From a virus (taxonomy: Duplodnaviria > Heunggongvirae > Uroviricota > Caudoviricetes): DNA of 5,268 nucleotides. The notes beneath the pieces were generated by a model. That model saw only the letters and a list, made by a program, of their open reading frames with translations, ran no database searches and had not been told where the DNA came from. Position numbers and translations under genes: made by a program. Shown here piece by piece: positions 1 through 5,268 of this stretch (position 1 is the stretch's first letter; each line of letters begins with the position of its first letter). The stretch lies in the IMG/VR virus record IMGVR_UViG_2541047928_000011. One strand, 5' to 3'.

Positions 1-708
1 CTGCAGGCCGATCGCATTGCGATGATTACCCCGGAGAACGGCAACACCACGCCGCTGTTTGTGGCGCAGGGGAATCAGCTGTTCATGAACGACGTGTTCC
101 TGAAGCGACTGTTTGCGGTGAGCATCACGTCATCCGGCAATCCTCCGACGTTTTCCCTGACGCCGGATGGCAGGCTGACAGCCCGCAATGCGGATATCAG
201 TGGAGCCATCACGGCGAATACCGGCACGCTCAATAATGTCACCATTAACGAGAACTGTGTCATCAGAGGGAAACTGTCTGCAAACCAGATTGAAGGCGAT
301 CTCGTTAAAACAGTGGGTAAGGCTTTCCCCCGTGACTCCCGTGCACCGAAGCGTTGGCCATCAGGAACCATTACCGTCAGGGTTTATGACGATCAGCCGT
401 TTAACCGGCAGATTGTTATTCCGGCGGTGGCTTTCAGCGGTGCCAGACATGAGCGGGAGAACAGCGATACTTATTCGTCATGCCGCCTGATAGTGAAGAA
501 AAACGGTGCTGAAATTTATAACCGTACCGCGATGGATAATACGCTGGTTTACAGTGGTGTTATTGATATGCCTGCTGGTCGCGGCCACATGACGCTGGAG
601 TTTTCTGTATCAGCATGGTGGGTAAATGGCTGGTATCCCACAGCAAGTATCAGCGATTTGCTGGTTGTTGTGATGAAGAAAGCCACTGCAGGCATTACGA
701 TTAGCTGA
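1..708 (+). CDS. J: Central tail fibre / host-specificity protein J, C-terminal part (gene starts upstream of the window)
   Basis: Frame 1 is open from base 1 to TGA at 706-708, so the ORF is 5'-truncated by the window edge. Position directly upstream of lom and stf reproduces the lambda J-lom-stf order. The C-terminal residues (...[36 protein letters not shown]) match my recollection of the lambda gpJ receptor-binding end. No alignment could be run. Confidence 0.8.
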
Positions 709-775: not shown

Positions 776-1375
776 ATGCGTAAAGTTTGTGCAGCCATTT
801 TGTCCGCAGCCATCTGTCTGTCCGTATCCGGTGCGCCTGCATGGGCGTCTGAACATCAGTCCACACTGAGCACAGGGTATCTTCATGCCCGTACGAACGC
901 TCCCGGCAGCGATAATCTGAACGGGATTAACGTGAAATACCGTTATGAGTTTACGGACACGCTGGGGCTGGTGACGTCATTCAGTTATGCCAATGCCAAA
1001 GATGAGCAAAAAACGCATTACAGCGATACCCGCTGGCATGAAGATTCCGTGCGTAACCGCTGGTTCAGCGTGATGGCGGGGCCGTCTGTACGCGTGAATG
1101 AATGGTTCAGCGCGTATGCAATGGCGGGTATGGCTTACAGCCGAGTGTCGACCTTCTCCGGGGATTATCTCCGCGTAACTGACAACAAGGGGAAAACGCA
1201 CGATGTGCTGACCGGAAGTGATGACGGTCGCCACAGCAATACGTCTCTGGCGTGGGGGGCTGGCGTGCAGTTTAACCCGACCGAATCCGTGGCCATTGAT
1301 ATTGCTTATGAAGGCTCCGGCAGTGGTGACTGGCGCACTGACGGTTTCATCGTGGGGGTCGGTTATAAATTCTGA
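776..1375 (+). CDS. lom: Lom outer-membrane protein (Ail/Lom/OmpX/PagC family beta-barrel), lysogenic-conversion moron
   Basis: 199-aa ORF with RBS GAGAGG (765-770) 5 nt before ATG 776. N-terminal signal peptide MRKVCAAILSAAICLSVSGAPAWA with an AWA-S cleavage site and a C-terminal aromatic residue (…GYKF) typical of OM beta-barrels. Sequence matches lambda Lom as I recall it (SEHQSTLS…GINVKYRYEF…). Confidence 0.93.
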   Translation: MRKVCAAILSAAICLSVSGAPAWASEHQSTLSTGYLHARTNAPGSDNLNGINVKYRYEFTDTLGLVTSFSYANAKDEQKTHYSDTRWHEDSVRNRWFSVMAGPSVRVNEWFSAYAMAGMAYSRVSTFSGDYLRVTDNKGKTHDVLTGSDDGRHSNTSLAWGAGVQFNPTESVAIDIAYEGSGSGDWRTDGFIVGVGYKF

Positions 1376-1428: not shown

Positions 1429-1439
1429 GTGGAGTGGAT

Positions 1440-3506
1440 ATGGCAGCAGTAAAAATCTCAGGTGTGCTGAAAGATGGTGCGGGAAAACCAATACAGAACT
1501 GCACTATTCAGCTGAAGGCAAAGCGTAACAGCACCACGGTACTGGTGAACACGGTGGCCTCTGAAAATCCGGATGAAGCCGGGCGTTACAGCATGGATGT
1601 TGAGCATGGCCAGTACAGCGTCACCCTGCTGGTTGAAGGTTTTCCGCCTTCACATGCCGGGACCATTACCGTCTATGAAGGTTCCAGACCAGGTACGCTG
1701 AATGATTTTCTTGGTGCCATGACGGAGGATGATGCCCGTCCGGAGGCACTGCGCCGTTTTGAACTGATGGTGGAAGAAGCAGCACGCAACGCTGAAGCCG
1801 CCTCTCAGAGCGCAGCGGCGGCAAAGAAATCCGAAACTGCAGCGGCATCATCGAAGAACGCGGCGAAAACCTCAGAAACGAATGCAGCTAATAGTGCACA
1901 GGCGGCAGCGACCTCACAGACTGCATCAGCAAACTCCGCGACAGCAGCCAAAAAATCAGAAACCAGCGCGAAAAACAGCGAGACAGCCACAAAGGCCAGC
2001 GAAAAAAACGCAAAATCCAGCCAGACGGCAGCGAAAACCAGTGAGACGAATGCCAAAGACAGTGAAGCCAACGCAAAGGTGAGCGAAACAGCGGCGGCGA
2101 ACTCGGCGAAAGCATCGGCAGCAAGCCAGACGGCAGCAAAAGCAAGTGAAGATGCTGCCAGAGAATACGCAAACCAGACAGCAGAGCCGTACAGATATGT
2201 TTTACAGCCGCTGCCGGATGTGTGGATACCCTTTAATGATTCGCTGGATATGATTACGGGCTATTCTCCGGGTTATAAAAAAGTGAAGATTGGCGATAAT
2301 GTGGTTCAGGTTGCCAGTGATAAACAGGTTAATTTCAGTCGCGCATCAACGGCAACATATATCAACAAATCTGGCGAACTGAAAACGGCGGAAATTAATG
2401 AGCCGCGATTTGAGTGTGATGGCCTGCTTATTGAGGGACAAAGAACGAACTTCTTCCAGAACAGTACAGACCCTTCGAAGTGGAATAAGTCAACTTCACT
2501 GGACGTTACAGAAACAGGCACAGATAGTTTCGGGTTTAATTATGGTCGGTTTGTCGTACAGGATTCGATTGTTGGTACAAGTAAAGCGCATACCATTATC
2601 GGACTGTATTCGAGTACCGGAGGGGTTGATACTTCAGGGGACGAAAAGCATGTAACTATATCCTGTCGGGTAAAAAGTGAAGTTGATAATATCGCCGTTC
2701 GTATTTTATTTGAACATTATGATGGGGAGGTAAGGACATCAATAGGAGCAGCAAACCTGAACCTTACCACCCGCATAATTAGCAAGACAGGTCAGACAAG
2801 CCGTGTTACAGCAAGGTCTGTTAAGGATGATGCAACTGGCTGGATATTTTTTGAGGCTACATTAAAAGCAGATACAACAGAAAATACGGTTGGTGGTTTT
2901 GTCCAGTATTCTCCGGATACAGGGCAGATGGTTACATCAGGGGATTATCTCGATGTAACCACTCCACAGATTGAGGCTGGTACAGGCGCATCATCTTTTA
3001 TTGTTACGGGGACGGCACCGGCAACGCGGGCAAGCGATATGGTGACAGTCCCAATCAAGAATAACCTTTATAATCTTCCTTTTACGGTTCTTTGTGAGGT
3101 ACATAAGAACTGGTATAAAACGCCAAATGTAGCGCCGCGTGTTTTTGATACCGGCGGTCATCAAACCGGAGCGGGGATCGTAATGGGGTTTGGTTCATCA
3201 GGTGGGTACGACGGTTTTCCGTATTGCGATATAGGTGGTTCAGACCGACGAATAAATGAAAATGCCGGGCTGGAAAAAATGCTTATTGGTATGCGGGTAA
3301 AGTCCGAACGGTCCACATGTGTAGTCAGTAACGGTAAGTTAAGCAGCGAAACTAAAACCAAATGGGAATATATCCGGAGTACAGCAACCATTCGCATTGG
3401 TGGACAAACTACAGCAGGATTACGCCATTTATTTGGGCATGTGAGGAATTTTCGTCTCTGGCATAAAGAGCTAACAGATGCGCAGCTTGGGGAGGTTGTG
3501 GAGTGA
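1440..3506 (+). CDS. stf: Side tail fibre protein Stf, mosaic: lambda-like N-terminal domain, heptad-repeat shaft, divergent distal receptor-binding half
   Basis: ORF ends at TGA 3504-3506. The N-terminus (AVKISGVLKDGAGKPIQNCTIQLKAKRNSTT…GRYSMDVEHGQYSV…FPPSHAGTITVYE) matches recalled lambda Stf (orf-401). Start is set at ATG 1440 because GGAG (1431-1434) lies 5 nt upstream; the ORF-track start ATG 1434 has no RBS. The distal half (about 2200-3506) is visibly AT-richer and does not resemble lambda Stf as I recall it. Confidence 0.9.
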   Translation: MAAVKISGVLKDGAGKPIQNCTIQLKAKRNSTTVLVNTVASENPDEAGRYSMDVEHGQYSVTLLVEGFPPSHAGTITVYEGSRPGTLNDFLGAMTEDDARPEALRRFELMVEEAARNAEAASQSAAAAKKSETAAASSKNAAKTSETNAANSAQAAATSQTASANSATAAKKSETSAKNSETATKASEKNAKSSQTAAKTSETNAKDSEANAKVSETAAANSAKASAASQTAAKASEDAAREYANQTAEPYRYVLQPLPDVWIPFNDSLDMITGYSPGYKKVKIGDNVVQVASDKQVNFSRASTATYINKSGELKTAEINEPRFECDGLLIEGQRTNFFQNSTDPSKWNKSTSLDVTETGTDSFGFNYGRFVVQDSIVGTSKAHTIIGLYSSTGGVDTSGDEKHVTISCRVKSEVDNIAVRILFEHYDGEVRTSIGAANLNLTTRIISKTGQTSRVTARSVKDDATGWIFFEATLKADTTENTVGGFVQYSPDTGQMVTSGDYLDVTTPQIEAGTGASSFIVTGTAPATRASDMVTVPIKNNLYNLPFTVLCEVHKNWYKTPNVAPRVFDTGGHQTGAGIVMGFGSSGGYDGFPYCDIGGSDRRINENAGLEKMLIGMRVKSERSTCVVSNGKLSSETKTKWEYIRSTATIRIGGQTTAGLRHLFGHVRNFRLWHKELTDAQLGEVVE
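1794..2162 (+). repeat. Degenerate 21-bp tandem repeat array encoding about 17 heptads (x-A-A-K-x-S-E/Q) in the Stf shaft
   Basis: Protein residues about 121-243 parse cleanly into 7-residue units (AAAKKSE TAAASSK NAAKTSE TNAANSA … TAAKASE). The underlying DNA is A/G/C-rich low complexity, which also produces stop-free spurious ORFs on both strands. Confidence 0.7.
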
Positions 3507-3781
3507 GAGATTTCACGTTGCGTTTCAGTGATAAAGCAGATTTCAGGGCATTTCTCAGGAAACTTAACTGGGAAGAGGACGAAGAGCTGCAGAATGCCGT
3601 TCTGGTTGATGAGATTGGTTTTACGTTCAGGGAGACAGATGTTTCTGATGACGGAGAACCAGAATACACGCGAAACGAAGGGTACTTTGTTAATATCCGT
3701 CTTCTTGACGATGGATTTGAGGATTCCGTGTTCCGTGAGTGGGTGGTTACACCAGAGCGCCCGCTCAGGGAGTGGTTTTAA
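3503..3781 (+). CDS. Hypothetical small acidic protein (92 aa), translationally coupled to stf; possible fibre-specific chaperone or accessory factor
   Basis: GTG start at 3503 overlaps the stf stop (GTGA, 3503-3506). RBS GGGGAGG (3489-3495) lies inside the stf 3' end. Stop TAA 3779-3781. The protein is D/E-rich, has no hydrophobic segment, and has no family I recognise. Confidence 0.55.
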   Translation: MRDFTLRFSDKADFRAFLRKLNWEEDEELQNAVLVDEIGFTFRETDVSDDGEPEYTRNEGYFVNIRLLDDGFEDSVFREWVVTPERPLREWF

Positions 3782-3790
3782 GGATAGCAG

Positions 3791-4084
3791 ATGGATATCA
3801 CGTCGATACTTCATGCGCTTTGTGCCGTGGCGGTGCAGGTACTGGCTGGTCTTTTTACCGGAAACTGGGCTTACGGGGCGATAGCCGGTTGTACGTTCTT
3901 CATTGCGCGTGAACACACCCAGGCAGAATATCGCTGGATTAAGCGTTTTGGTGATGGTCACCGACATAAGATGCCGTGGTGGGGCGGTTTTGATCCACGT
4001 GCATGGGATGTGGCAAGCCTGATGGATTTTGCTGTGCCGGTGGTGGCGTGTCTGCTGGTCTGGCTGTTGGTTAATCGTGGGTGA
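3791..4084 (+). CDS. Hypothetical small membrane protein (97 aa, 2-3 predicted TM segments)
   Basis: RBS AAGGA (3780-3784) 6 nt before ATG 3791. A long N-terminal hydrophobic stretch (ITSILHALCAVAVQVLAGLFTGNWAYGAIAGCTFFIA) and a C-terminal hydrophobic helix (SLMDFAVPVVACLLVWLLV) flank a basic Trp-rich loop (RWIKRFGDGHRHKMPWWGGFDPRAW). Stop TGA 4082-4084. Confidence 0.55.
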   Translation: MDITSILHALCAVAVQVLAGLFTGNWAYGAIAGCTFFIAREHTQAEYRWIKRFGDGHRHKMPWWGGFDPRAWDVASLMDFAVPVVACLLVWLLVNRG

Positions 4085-4093
4085 AAAAGGTGA

Positions 4094-4222
4094 GCAGTAT
4101 ATGCAACGAAGGAGGAAACATCATTGCTGGCGGCATGGAAGGCATGCAGGGTGTTGCTGAACCGTGTTGATACATCAACTGCACCTGATATTGAGTGGCC
4201 TACGAACCCTGTCAGGGAGTAA
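4094..4222 (+). pseudogene. tfa: 3' remnant of a lambda-type tail fibre assembly gene (tfa), last ~40 codons only, no start codon
   Basis: In-frame translation gives …[39 protein letters not shown], which matches the recalled lambda Tfa C-terminus (…[34 protein letters not shown]…). In-frame stops at 4082 and 4091 precede it and the N-terminal ~150 codons of a full tfa are absent. Confidence 0.7.
4124..4200 (+). repeat. Direct repeat copy A (tfa 3'-end sequence), partner at 5173-5249
   Basis: Ungapped alignment at offset 1049 bp: 77 positions with 10 mismatches counted by eye, and a 38-bp perfectly identical core (4163-4200 = 5212-5249, CGTGTTGATACATCAACTGCACCTGATATTGAGTGGCC). Confidence 0.85.
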
Positions 4223-4236
4223 TCATTGGGATTATG

Positions 4237-4269
4237 CCGCAGCACGTCTTAAGCAAGAACGTGCTGCGG
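4237..4269. other. Perfect 11-bp inverted repeat (stem-loop) between convergent genes
   Basis: CCGCAGCACGT (4237-4247) and ACGTGCTGCGG (4259-4269) are exact reverse complements around an 11-nt loop. No U-tract is directly adjacent on either strand, so it is not a canonical intrinsic terminator. It sits in the 54-bp gap between the tfa stub (ends 4222) and the minus-strand gene (ends 4277). Confidence 0.4.
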
Positions 4270-4276
4270 TTGGATG

Positions 4277-4933
4277 CTATTTTTTCCCTGAAGCGGAAAA
4301 CATTACTACAGTACCTTGAATCTTGGTTTTAACATTCTCGAAATGCTCTGAGAGTATATGTGTTAAGCCTTCTTCGGAATCTTTTGTGTTTGAAAAGATG
4401 CCTTTCTGATTGTAAATGCGCATCAGTTTTTGACCGAAGCTATTGTGCACAACGCCGTCACCAAGAATTGTGGCTCCGTATAGAGTTCCATCGTCAGTTA
4501 AGGCCTGCGCCGCATTGCGTATTACACAGCTTTTTGTAGATATATTTCCAGGCAGGCAGTGAAGAAGGTAAAACATGGAAATGGAATCAAATTGACCATG
4601 TAACGCCGCGGGATAAGGATCAAAAACATCATGGCTAATTTTATGTTTAATTTTTGATTCCCCAGCCCTTGTCGATGCCGCGTTCAGGCTAGCTTCGTTC
4701 AAATCCATTAAAGATATCAGACTACTCTCAGGTACGTGAGTAAGGTAAAACCCAGTTCCAACGCCAATATCCAGATGGTTGTTACCTAAATGTTCCAGAA
4801 AGTGTGGAAGAAGGTGTTCCTTTGTAGGACATCCCCATGCAAGCCGATTTGATACTCCCAAAACCCACCAGTCATAAAGCTTTAGGGTAAGTGGTGTGTA
4901 AATTTTAGCCCCATCATCTGTGTTTTTTTTCAT
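4277..4933 (-). CDS. Class I (Rossmann-fold) SAM-dependent methyltransferase-like protein, small-molecule/RNA/protein type rather than DNA MTase
   Basis: Recognisable motifs: motif I LDIGVGTG, a post-I acidic residue (…ISLMDLNE), motif II GQFDSISMFYLLHCLP, motif III LTDDGTLYG. No DPPY/NPPY catalytic motif in the right context and no target-recognition domain. The region is markedly AT-rich compared with J/lom. Start is set at ATG 4933 (GGTGA 5 nt upstream); the ORF-track start GTG 4942 has no RBS. Stop TAG 4277-4279. Confidence 0.8.
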   Translation of the reverse strand: MKKNTDDGAKIYTPLTLKLYDWWVLGVSNRLAWGCPTKEHLLPHFLEHLGNNHLDIGVGTGFYLTHVPESSLISLMDLNEASLNAASTRAGESKIKHKISHDVFDPYPAALHGQFDSISMFYLLHCLPGNISTKSCVIRNAAQALTDDGTLYGATILGDGVVHNSFGQKLMRIYNQKGIFSNTKDSEEGLTHILSEHFENVKTKIQGTVVMFSASGKK

Positions 4934-4945
4934 TAGTTTCACCGT

Positions 4946-5001: not shown

Positions 5002-5268
5002 ATGCTGCCGCAGCATAGCGATATTGAAATAGCCTGGTATGCTTCGATACAGCAGGAGCCGAATGGCTGGAAGACCGTCACCACACAGTTCTACATCCAG
5101 GAATTCAGTGAGTATATTGCGCCACTGCAGGATGCTGTAGATCTGGAAATCGCAACGGAGGAAGAAAGATCGTTGCTGGAGGCATGGAATAAATATCGGG
5201 TATTGTTGAATCGTGTTGATACATCAACTGCACCTGATATTGAGTGGCCGACTTCACCTGCAGAGTAA
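5002..5268 (+). CDS. Small Tfa-like protein (88 aa) carrying only the conserved C-terminal Tfa domain (tail fibre assembly family)
   Basis: RBS AAGGGG (4992-4997) before ATG 5002; stop TAA 5266-5268 at the window end. The C-terminal ~50 aa ([47 protein letters not shown]) match the recalled lambda Tfa C-terminus; the N-terminal ~36 aa are unrelated and far shorter than a full Tfa N-domain. Confidence 0.7.
5173..5249 (+). repeat. Direct repeat copy B (tfa 3'-end sequence), partner at 4124-4200
   Basis: See copy A: same orientation, 1049 bp apart, 38-bp identical core 5212-5249. Confidence 0.85.

Follow-up and report, generated by a model that had tools for sequence, protein, structure and literature searches.

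What does a small, strongly conserved membrane protein do at the very end of a phage's receptor-binding genes? The question is raised by a gene, here called X, at positions 3791 to 4084 (plus strand) of a 5,268-nucleotide stretch of viral DNA (IMG/VR record IMGVR_UViG_2541047928_000011; "the window" hereafter means this whole stretch). The window comes from a lambdoid Escherichia coli prophage, where it forms the distal end of the late operon. Its closest genome is that of strain JNEC-KY173 (99.7% identity), where it adjoins potB. We found that X, which encodes a predicted inner-membrane protein, is the last gene of receptor-binding protein (RBP) cassettes in temperate phages of all three tail types, and that it is accessory cargo, neither a structural protein nor a fibre-specific chaperone. 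Its function can be addressed only tentatively: several readings are compared below, and the one that we place first is possible rather than probable.

X is a genuine gene of a widespread, uncharacterised family

The gene is real and under strong constraint. Its open reading frame (ORF) runs from ATG to TGA over 97 codons, as the initial annotation of this DNA had it, and RefSeq annotates the same ORF as a WP_000355700-type "hypothetical protein." Comparison with diverged E. coli alleles gave dN/dS values of 0.16 to 0.33, indicating purifying selection. The initial annotation had left room for two disappointments, namely, that X might lack conserved homologues and that an overlapping minus-strand frame might be the conserved one. 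Neither was borne out: homologues form 561 clusters when grouped at 90% identity and 452 when grouped at 50%, and 13 of the 36 distinct alleles have stop codons in the overlapping minus-strand frame. Minus-strand ORFs at 3958 to 4245 and 3161 to 3967 were considered and rejected, having no family matches and being interrupted in homologues.

X appears to move as a discrete unit, because blastn homology between the window and the P22-like copies (L008 and L009) starts at 3780/3781, exactly at the ribosome-binding site, and because the gene forms a GC-rich island (about 55%, versus about 46% in its flanks). Promoters and terminators were sought by consensus scans only. In the window, these revealed no promoter-like or terminator-like site around X, the start of which is coupled to the upstream stop.

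The only family assignment found for X was PHROG 1443 (E = 5e-55; residues 1 to 96 on profile positions 1 to 96 of 97), a family labelled "unknown function" that ranges over alpha-, beta-, and gammaproteobacteria and Desulfovibrio. No match above the curated thresholds was obtained for X in Pfam, NCBIfam, or PADLOC, and none in the PDB at E values up to 10 with either single sequences or profiles; fold searches returned no informative match. When 37 diverse members were scanned one by one against profile libraries, only sub-threshold matches appeared. The best of these was to the N-terminal transmembrane (TM) hairpin of PhoR, matched by 4 of the 37 members (best E = 0.0032, against a cut-off of 27 bits). 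We judged this match to be compositional, covering TM1, the turn, and TM2 only; it is at most mildly consistent with a hairpin that has its N terminus inside. All homologues are named "hypothetical protein" in their sources, and literature searches on the family (UniProt name "Ybl63") returned nothing on it. The initial annotation had not recognised the family either. The X family is widespread and uncharacterised, and its synteny is unusually consistent.

X closes the receptor-binding cassette in unrelated phages

The consistency lies in what precedes the gene. Phages resembling lambda, P22, P2, and P1, and environmental tailspike phages as well, have X directly 3' of the last RBP gene. The lambda-like siphoviruses with this arrangement are the window, phage 21, and ev243; phage 21 has the same order of fibre gene, 92-amino-acid (aa) gene, and X, with X labelled only "putative membrane protein." The gene comes after the tailspike gene in the P22-like podoviruses Gally and 611R6, after J and a pectate-lyase spike in a Citrobacter siphovirus, and after a 2520-aa J protein in a Comamonas prophage. 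In a P2-like Leclercia prophage, the fibre carries its own S74 chaperone domain and the X start codon comes directly after the end of the fibre gene. A P1-like element has X with LamG-type fibre genes. In phiHAP-1, a P2-like myovirus of Halomonas, X lies between a tail-fibre assembly gene and the sheath gene, which we take to be the position of the Z/fun anti-T5 gene of P2. A more distant branch, found in 80 environmental viral contigs, also has X after an RBP gene. There, 19 of the 33 upstream-gene clusters are pectate-lyase-type tailspikes, and the gap to the upstream RBP gene is at most 20 nucleotides (nt) in 47 of 72 copies.

The RBPs themselves are of unrelated types (LamG-type fibre, pectate-lyase tailspikes, S74 endosialidase-type fibres, and giant J), whereas X is 54 to 60% identical among E. 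coli, Comamonas, and Aeromonas. RBP genes and X go together, but the sequence of X is independent of the RBP type. Since X stays constant beside hypervariable RBPs, it is neither a receptor-specific mask nor a fibre-specific chaperone. The suggestion in the initial annotation that X may block the entry of phages using the same receptor does not fit here.

The window does contain a fibre-specific gene, that of the 92-aa acidic protein between the fibre gene and X. A P1-like element of Leclercia has two LamG-type fibre genes, and behind each stands a 94/95-aa gene whose product resembles the 92-aa protein (28 to 29% identity; E = 1e-13 to 1e-14). Because its homologue duplicates with each LamG-type fibre gene and X does not, we regard the 92-aa gene as a fibre-specific accessory and X as something else. 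The 92-aa protein is probably a dedicated chaperone or accessory of the LamG-type fibre class. The two genes belong to one cassette but are different functional units.

Lysis genes also occur in the neighbourhood. Many environmental contigs, a JGI contig, and a P1-like element have a holin, endolysin, or LydB gene next after X; the other downstream genes of the environmental contigs are recurrent but mostly uninformative. In lambdoid phages, the RBP and lysis modules are separated. Where the two modules lie apart, as in P22-like, P2-like, and phage-21-like genomes, it is the RBP that X accompanies. Another uncharacterised family, phrog_1544 (about 166 aa), is repeatedly found beside X (L100, 6057 to 6554; L010, 2993 to 3493), being downstream of it in 11 environmental contigs and upstream in Aeromonas phage 62AhydR11PP.

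X is accessory cargo with resident relatives

In Gally, X occupies the interval from the tailspike gene to int, the place held in P22 by the gtrABC O-antigen conversion locus. A strong terminator with a 9-bp stem and then a 190-bp AT-rich spacer with a promoter-like site precede X there. In 611R6, X adjoins an OafA O-acetylase gene. HC6 and five near-identical coliphages carry a truncated, degenerate, and unannotated X remnant (L246, 3965 to 4120; …RRRANIPWWGGFDWRAWDLPSLLD) directly after an 859-aa tailspike gene. In these phages, X appears to have been carried along with the tailspike cassette and to be decaying now.

X is also found as a resident chromosomal gene. Five Aeromonas genomes (L005, L176, and L179-L181) have an intact copy in one syntenic locus with the order pirin, X, RIO1 kinase, and two lipid-A acyltransferase paralogues. 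At this locus, X is 84 to 97% identical among genomes, compared to 80 to 99% for the housekeeping neighbours; the proximity to lipid-A genes may or may not be meaningful. In Sphingomonadales and related alphaproteobacteria, chromosomal X lies beside ligA, recN, pnp, uvrA, or ftsZ, and several species of Leclercia and Silvania have intact lone copies at conserved non-phage loci. In E. coli, X is present in 1900 of 5426 complete genomes (about 35%), with a median of two copies and up to 7.

Being last in RBP cassettes, independent of the RBP in sequence, and present as lone chromosomal copies in some bacteria, X is accessory cargo. This agrees with two earlier suggestions, that X has no obvious role in the virion (it is not a recognisable virion part) and that it closes the tail-fibre locus as a moron-like gene.

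X is predicted to be a compact helical bundle with a basic loop

From an alignment of 27 sequences, AlphaFold2 modelled X as three helices (residues 4 to 23, 26 to 53, and 74 to 96) with a mean pLDDT of 93.9. Hydropathy gives two strong hydrophobic segments (residues about 4 to 22 and 76 to 94) and one marginal segment (25 to 39), so that the initial count of two to three TM segments was accurate. TM2 continues straight into the invariant motif R40-E41-x-x-Q44-A45-E46, with which a loop of residues 40 to 73 begins. This loop had been described as basic and Trp-rich, rightly so: it holds four Trp, seven Lys/Arg, and three His residues. The C-terminal tail is only three residues long and is not charged. 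Domain fusions were absent from the top 150 family representatives, all of which are 58 to 146 aa long; three of them have an insertion of about 45 aa at the loop tip.

Across alignments reaching down to about 30% identity, the TM segments drift, while H8, R40, E41, E46, W72, D79, and P83 never or hardly ever vary, and the same holds for G29, Q44, A45, R58, and P62. In a closer subfamily that extends from E. coli to Comamonas and Aeromonas, the stretch AREHTQAEYRWI..FG.G.R..MPWWGGFD is fixed. In the model, the invariant or near-invariant polar residues H8, R40, E41, E46, W72, and D79 share one membrane face, with H8, R40/E41, and D79 about one helical turn inside it. Small residues repeat at i+4 spacing on every helix. 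According to the model, the helices may pack tightly into a bundle that has a polar site at one interface.

Topology was predicted from the distribution of charge. Over 196 members, the mean number of Lys plus Arg residues was 0.6 in the N-terminal tail, 0.08 in the turn between TM1 and TM2, 5.4 in the big loop, and 0.7 in the C-terminal tail. Because these residues concentrate in the big loop, the positive-inside rule favours an arrangement with the N terminus and the loop inside and the C terminus outside, which would leave almost nothing in the periplasm. TMHMM as run by the annotators of phage 21 differs, predicting two TM segments with both termini inside and, consequently, a periplasmic big loop.

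Alleles of X appear to have been exchanged at the loop tip

The tip of this loop has a history of its own. Of the 19 nucleotide differences between the window and JNEC-KY173, 15 lie in codons 51 to 60 of X, where they change six residues (KRFGDGHRHK in the window and EMFGHGKRIN in JNEC-KY173) and four synonymous sites. A copy of this 40-nt patch with 100% identity is present in 98 further E. coli genomes. In ABU 83972 it sits in a separate prophage with the order J-lom-fibre-92aa-X, and in EcPF40 it is about 200 kb away from that strain's window-like prophage. Since synonymous changes are included and the patch is identical in 98 genomes, it points to recombination between old alleles; it looks like short-patch gene conversion between paralogous X alleles. 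For the same two reasons, we rejected mutagenesis of the loop tip by a system resembling a diversity-generating retroelement (DGR). Codons 51 to 60 are the most variable site of the family, and it is this site that accepts a 45-aa insertion in some members. The concentration of divergence in these codons, together with the exchange of allele classes, is a possible arms-race signature.

What X may do

With a receptor mask, a chaperone, a holin, and a toxin all disfavoured, the remaining option is an accessory inner-membrane protein that would act on a Proteobacteria-wide target. As the conserved surface is the same from alpha- to gammaproteobacteria, the sequences suggest that X most likely acts on a universally conserved component of the inner membrane rather than on a receptor.

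Our first-ranked, though tentative, reading is that X, as an accessory protein, blocks superinfection at the inner membrane independently of the receptor. We rank it first because of the location of X in conversion and defence slots, its loss in HC6-like phages, its retention in hosts, and the divergence of its loop tip; the support is circumstantial. On such a reading, X would protect the lysogen or the infected cell against superinfecting phages regardless of the receptor used, by interfering with the formation or use of the genome-entry conduit at the cytoplasmic membrane. The hypervariable loop tip could contact variable ejection or tape-measure proteins of the incoming phage. The outcome would be the same as for P22 SieA, T4 Imm, or HK97 gp15 but would be reached via an unrelated protein.

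A number of observations weigh against superinfection exclusion. X has no homology to any characterised exclusion protein in the PHROG, PADLOC, BLASTP, and hhalign tests. Known exclusion proteins form narrow, fast-evolving families, whereas the X motif is invariant across proteobacterial classes; an invariant, enzyme-like motif and resident chromosomal copies fit a housekeeping-type biochemical activity better. Expression in a lysogen is not evident, because X in the window lacks a promoter of its own, being translationally coupled to late genes, and because most environmental copies (the 47 of 72 mentioned above) hug the RBP gene. Moreover, if the big loop is cytoplasmic, almost nothing of X is exposed to the periplasm, where ejection conduits assemble.

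Two serious rivals have to be weighed, both of them less likely in our view. According to the first, X is a modulator of envelope glycans or of their lipid carrier, that is, a lysogenic conversion factor in the form of an inhibitor or a minimal membrane enzyme. Its site of action would be the inner-leaflet interface, and its target a universal lipid-linked intermediate (O-antigen, capsule, or exopolysaccharide [EPS] precursors linked to undecaprenyl phosphate [Und-P]) or the enzymes that handle it. Travelling with glycan-targeting RBPs, X would alter or shut off the polysaccharide receptor in the lysogen or late in infection. The clustering of H8, R40, E41, E46, D79, and W72 at one face of the three-helix bundle would suit such an activity, and the loop is predicted to lie in the cytoplasm, the side on which lipid-linked sugars are built. 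By far most partners of X are RBPs that bind or degrade glycans (pectate-lyase spikes, S74 endosialidase-type fibres, and LamG fibres), although this may only mirror the abundance of glycan-targeting RBPs in temperate phages. The gtrABC position in Gally, the OafA neighbour in 611R6, and the cellular copies, which in Aeromonas are near two lipid-A acyltransferase genes, point in the same direction, and conservation across classes fits a conserved substrate. On the other hand, profile searches detected no similarity of X to glycan-pathway families such as GtrA, PAP2, DedA, or Wzx/Wzy, 97 aa is very small for an enzyme unless it is oligomeric, and the sphingomonad contexts are without conserved polysaccharide genes.

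The second serious rival, to which we give the same limited credence, takes X to be a membrane protein of host physiology, unrelated to phage conflict or receptors. It might, for instance, be a small channel, serve in stress responses or ion homeostasis, or regulate some conserved membrane complex. Phages would have acquired it as a moron that benefits fitness and simply collects where late operons tolerate extra genes, at their end. The vertically inherited chromosomal copies in Aeromonas and Sphingomonadales and the intact lone copies in Leclercia and Silvania are readily understood in these terms. So are the conserved polar residues within TM helices (H8, Q16, and D79), as found in small channels and proton-relay proteins. 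The ends of tail operons are known moron sites, and lom in the window is flanked by terminator-like hairpins. The main difficulty is the tight coupling to RBP genes, with overlapping or abutting stop and start codons, which recurs in five unrelated genome architectures and is more specific than generic moron accumulation. In addition, no operon partner or family annotation indicates a particular physiology.

A bolder proposal, which we consider doubtful, is the following. X would found an ancient family of minimal membrane enzymes or channels (about 100 aa, probably oligomeric), whose H/R-E/E/D site at the cytoplasmic membrane interface acts on a universal lipid carrier or precursor of the envelope. 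Whatever their tail type, phages would bring X along with glycan-targeting RBP cassettes as a switch on the supply of receptor polysaccharide. If true, this mechanism would be unlike every known exclusion or serotype-conversion system.

A role in lysis, as a holin, antiholin, or regulator of lysis timing, is improbable. It is suggested by the holin, endolysin, or LydB genes that come next in many environmental contigs, the JGI contig, and the P1-like element, and by weak sub-threshold matches to holins (phrog_198, E = 0.077; Phage_holin_8 in 1 of 37 members). Yet X stays with the RBP where RBP and lysis modules are apart, separate holins are encoded beside it, and it has no charged C-terminal tail. 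Its stable lone copies in chromosomes are hard to reconcile with a lethal holin. The initial annotation had thought a holin-like or toxin-like peptide equally conceivable, and these findings speak against both.

Still less likely is that X helps to assemble specific RBPs, anchors maturing fibres in the membrane, or forms part of the virion. Such a role would suit its constant position beside RBP genes and its often coupled translation with them, but near-identical X occurs beside wholly unrelated RBPs, some fibres preceding X bring their own S74 intramolecular chaperone, and the 92-aa gene, duplicated with each fibre gene unlike X, already is the fibre-specific partner. Moreover, chromosomal copies exist without any RBP, and X has decayed in HC6-like phages. 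We give least credit to a toxic small membrane peptide of a toxin-antitoxin or abortive-infection system, for which a small hydrophobic protein on a mobile element might be taken, considering the lone, vertically inherited copies without a partner gene, the elaborate invariant loop in place of a simple TM peptide, and the lack of a PADLOC match.

Whatever its activity, X is common: about one-third of complete E. coli genomes carry one to seven copies, annotated as "hypothetical protein" everywhere. If it provides receptor-independent protection or remodels the envelope, X would be a common factor in phage host range that has so far gone unaccounted for, with a bearing on phage therapy and on genome-based prediction of host range. 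The fixed position of the gene is a practical marker of the 3' boundary of RBP cassettes in phage genomes that otherwise resist annotation. The family bridges phage cargo and resident chromosomal genes of Aeromonas and sphingomonads, and an enzyme-like invariant site within about 100 residues makes it an attractive small target for membrane biochemistry.

Setting of X in the window

The features of the window are listed in Table 1. By blastn, the sequence is common with phage 21 up to 4159. The tfa (tail-fibre-assembly) remnant behind X marks an old junction, at which, to judge from the sequence, the cassette of fibre gene, 92-aa gene, and X replaced the stf-tfa end of the lambda type.

Table 1. 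Genes, gene remnants, and parts of X in the window
Feature	Position	Strand	Description
J, C-terminus	22-708		
lom	776-1375		
Phage-21-type side tail fibre	1434-3506	+	PF08400 N-terminus and GTA-head-spike/LamG-like distal domain; receptor-binding gene upstream of X
92-aa acidic protein	3503-3781	+	phrog_1361; fibre-specific accessory gene of the LamG-type side tail fibre
Shine-Dalgarno sequence AAGGA	3780-3784	+	6 nt 5' of the X ATG; overlaps the stop of the 92-codon gene
X	3791-4084	+	97 aa; small polytopic predicted inner-membrane protein; PHROG 1443
Helix 1 / TM1 of X	3800-3859	+	Residues 4-23; conserved H8, A12, Q16, and G20 on one face
Helix 2 of X	3866-3949	+	Residues 26-53; short Gly/Ala-rich hydrophobic part (26-39) is TM2
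Basic Trp-rich loop of X	3908-4009	+	Residues 40-73; AREHTQAEYRWI..FG.G.R..MPWWGGFDPR.W
Hypervariable loop tip of X	3941-3970	+	Codons 51-60
Helix 3 / TM3 of X	4010-4078	+	Residues 74-96; near-invariant D79, invariant P83
tfa 3' remnant	4103-4222	+	RefSeq pseudogene; directly 3' of X
S-adenosylmethionine (SAM) methyltransferase	4277-4942	-	
Second tfa remnant	from about 5095 (RefSeq annotation)		ORF starts at 5002

The two tfa 3' remnants flank the methyltransferase gene and form a 101-nt direct repeat (4103 to 4203 and 5152 to 5252; 85% identity), which suggests that the methyltransferase cassette was inserted through recombination within tfa. A few nucleotides 3' of the methyltransferase stop lies a perfect 11-bp inverted repeat (4237 to 4269; CCGCAGCACGT / ACGTGCTGCGG) with an 11-nt loop. 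It may be a terminator or a stabilising hairpin, and its long loop explains why the consensus scan overlooked it. RefSeq also has a 45-aa "nucleocapsid protein" at 4195 to 4332, overlapping the tfa remnant and the end of the methyltransferase gene; this call is almost certainly spurious. Upstream, lom is flanked by two terminator-like hairpins with T-runs (727 to 746 and 1402 to 1423), a textbook moron layout to which X has nothing comparable. The fibre shaft has a region (1800 to 2100) of Ala/Ser/Thr/Lys-rich repeats of the AAKKSETAA... type with an extreme AT skew, up to 0.69, and these repeats give rise to long spurious ORFs on the opposite strand.

Comparison with known systems

Among the known systems nearest to X is SieA of P22, an inner-membrane protein with three predicted TM segments that acts without any other phage protein to prevent the delivery of DNA at the inner membrane (PMC10883804). 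Both proteins are phage encoded and have genes close to the tailspike region of temperate phages. The model of X also has three helices, but its TM2 is short and marginal, and X has 97 aa, compared to 162 to 164 aa in SieA. Sequence comparison gave a BLASTP E value of 0.12 on TM residues only and an hhalign probability of 0.1%, and the FxRYPxEAxxFNK motif of SieA is absent from X. SieA occurs in P22-like phages alone, with its types sharing under 30% identity, whereas X is found in sipho-, podo-, and myoviruses and in three proteobacterial classes, with an invariant motif. SieA also has its own lysogenic promoter, whereas X in the window has none.

T4 Imm, which had been invoked as a precedent in the initial annotation, shares with X the character of a very small (83 aa) hydrophobic inner-membrane protein, and according to its annotation it prevents the entry of superinfecting DNA. 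Kinship is not apparent (BLASTP E = 29; no PHROG cross-match). Imm is an early gene of a virulent phage and is unlinked to RBP genes, whereas X adds a third helix and a conserved loop of 34 residues. HK97 gp15 (Cumby et al., 2012) is reportedly a small inner-membrane moron product encoded among lambdoid tail genes that is dispensable for growth and blocks genome injection. It is a single-pass protein from a self-contained transcription unit, in contrast to X, which in the window is translationally coupled to the preceding late gene; no PHROG match connects the two.

Like X, the genes for Cor (phi80, N15, and HK022) and for Llp of T5 lie beside receptor-binding genes at the end of the tail region, and the initial annotation had considered Cor-like receptor blocking. 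Cor and Llp are lipoproteins of the outer membrane, each masking a single receptor (FhuA) and varying together with the RBP, whereas X is predicted to reside in the inner membrane, with nearly all of its non-membrane mass in the cytoplasm, and is invariant beside unrelated RBPs. X also has no lipobox, as H8-A9-L10-C11 is off pattern and C11 is not conserved. Immunity proteins against pore-forming colicins (E1 and Ia) offer a parallel outside phages. They have about 110 aa and three TM segments, reside in the inner membrane, and are encoded right after the gene of the receptor-binding killer protein; recognition is helix to helix within the membrane, and a large conserved loop is lacking. X does have such a loop, and the phage RBPs are without a pore-forming domain; none of the searches run revealed a sequence relationship between X and colicin immunity proteins.

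The gtrABC locus of P22 resembles X in Gally in lying between the tailspike gene and attP/int and in setting membrane proteins alongside glycan-specific RBPs. Its three genes, encoded on the opposite strand under their own promoter, make up a glycosylation system, whereas X is a single gene that has no Pfam or NCBIfam similarity to GtrA or to any glycosyl- or acetyltransferase. Set against all these systems, the initial interpretation is partly supported: X stands outside every known exclusion family and is not receptor specific, but it is, as first suggested, an accessory, moron-like gene.

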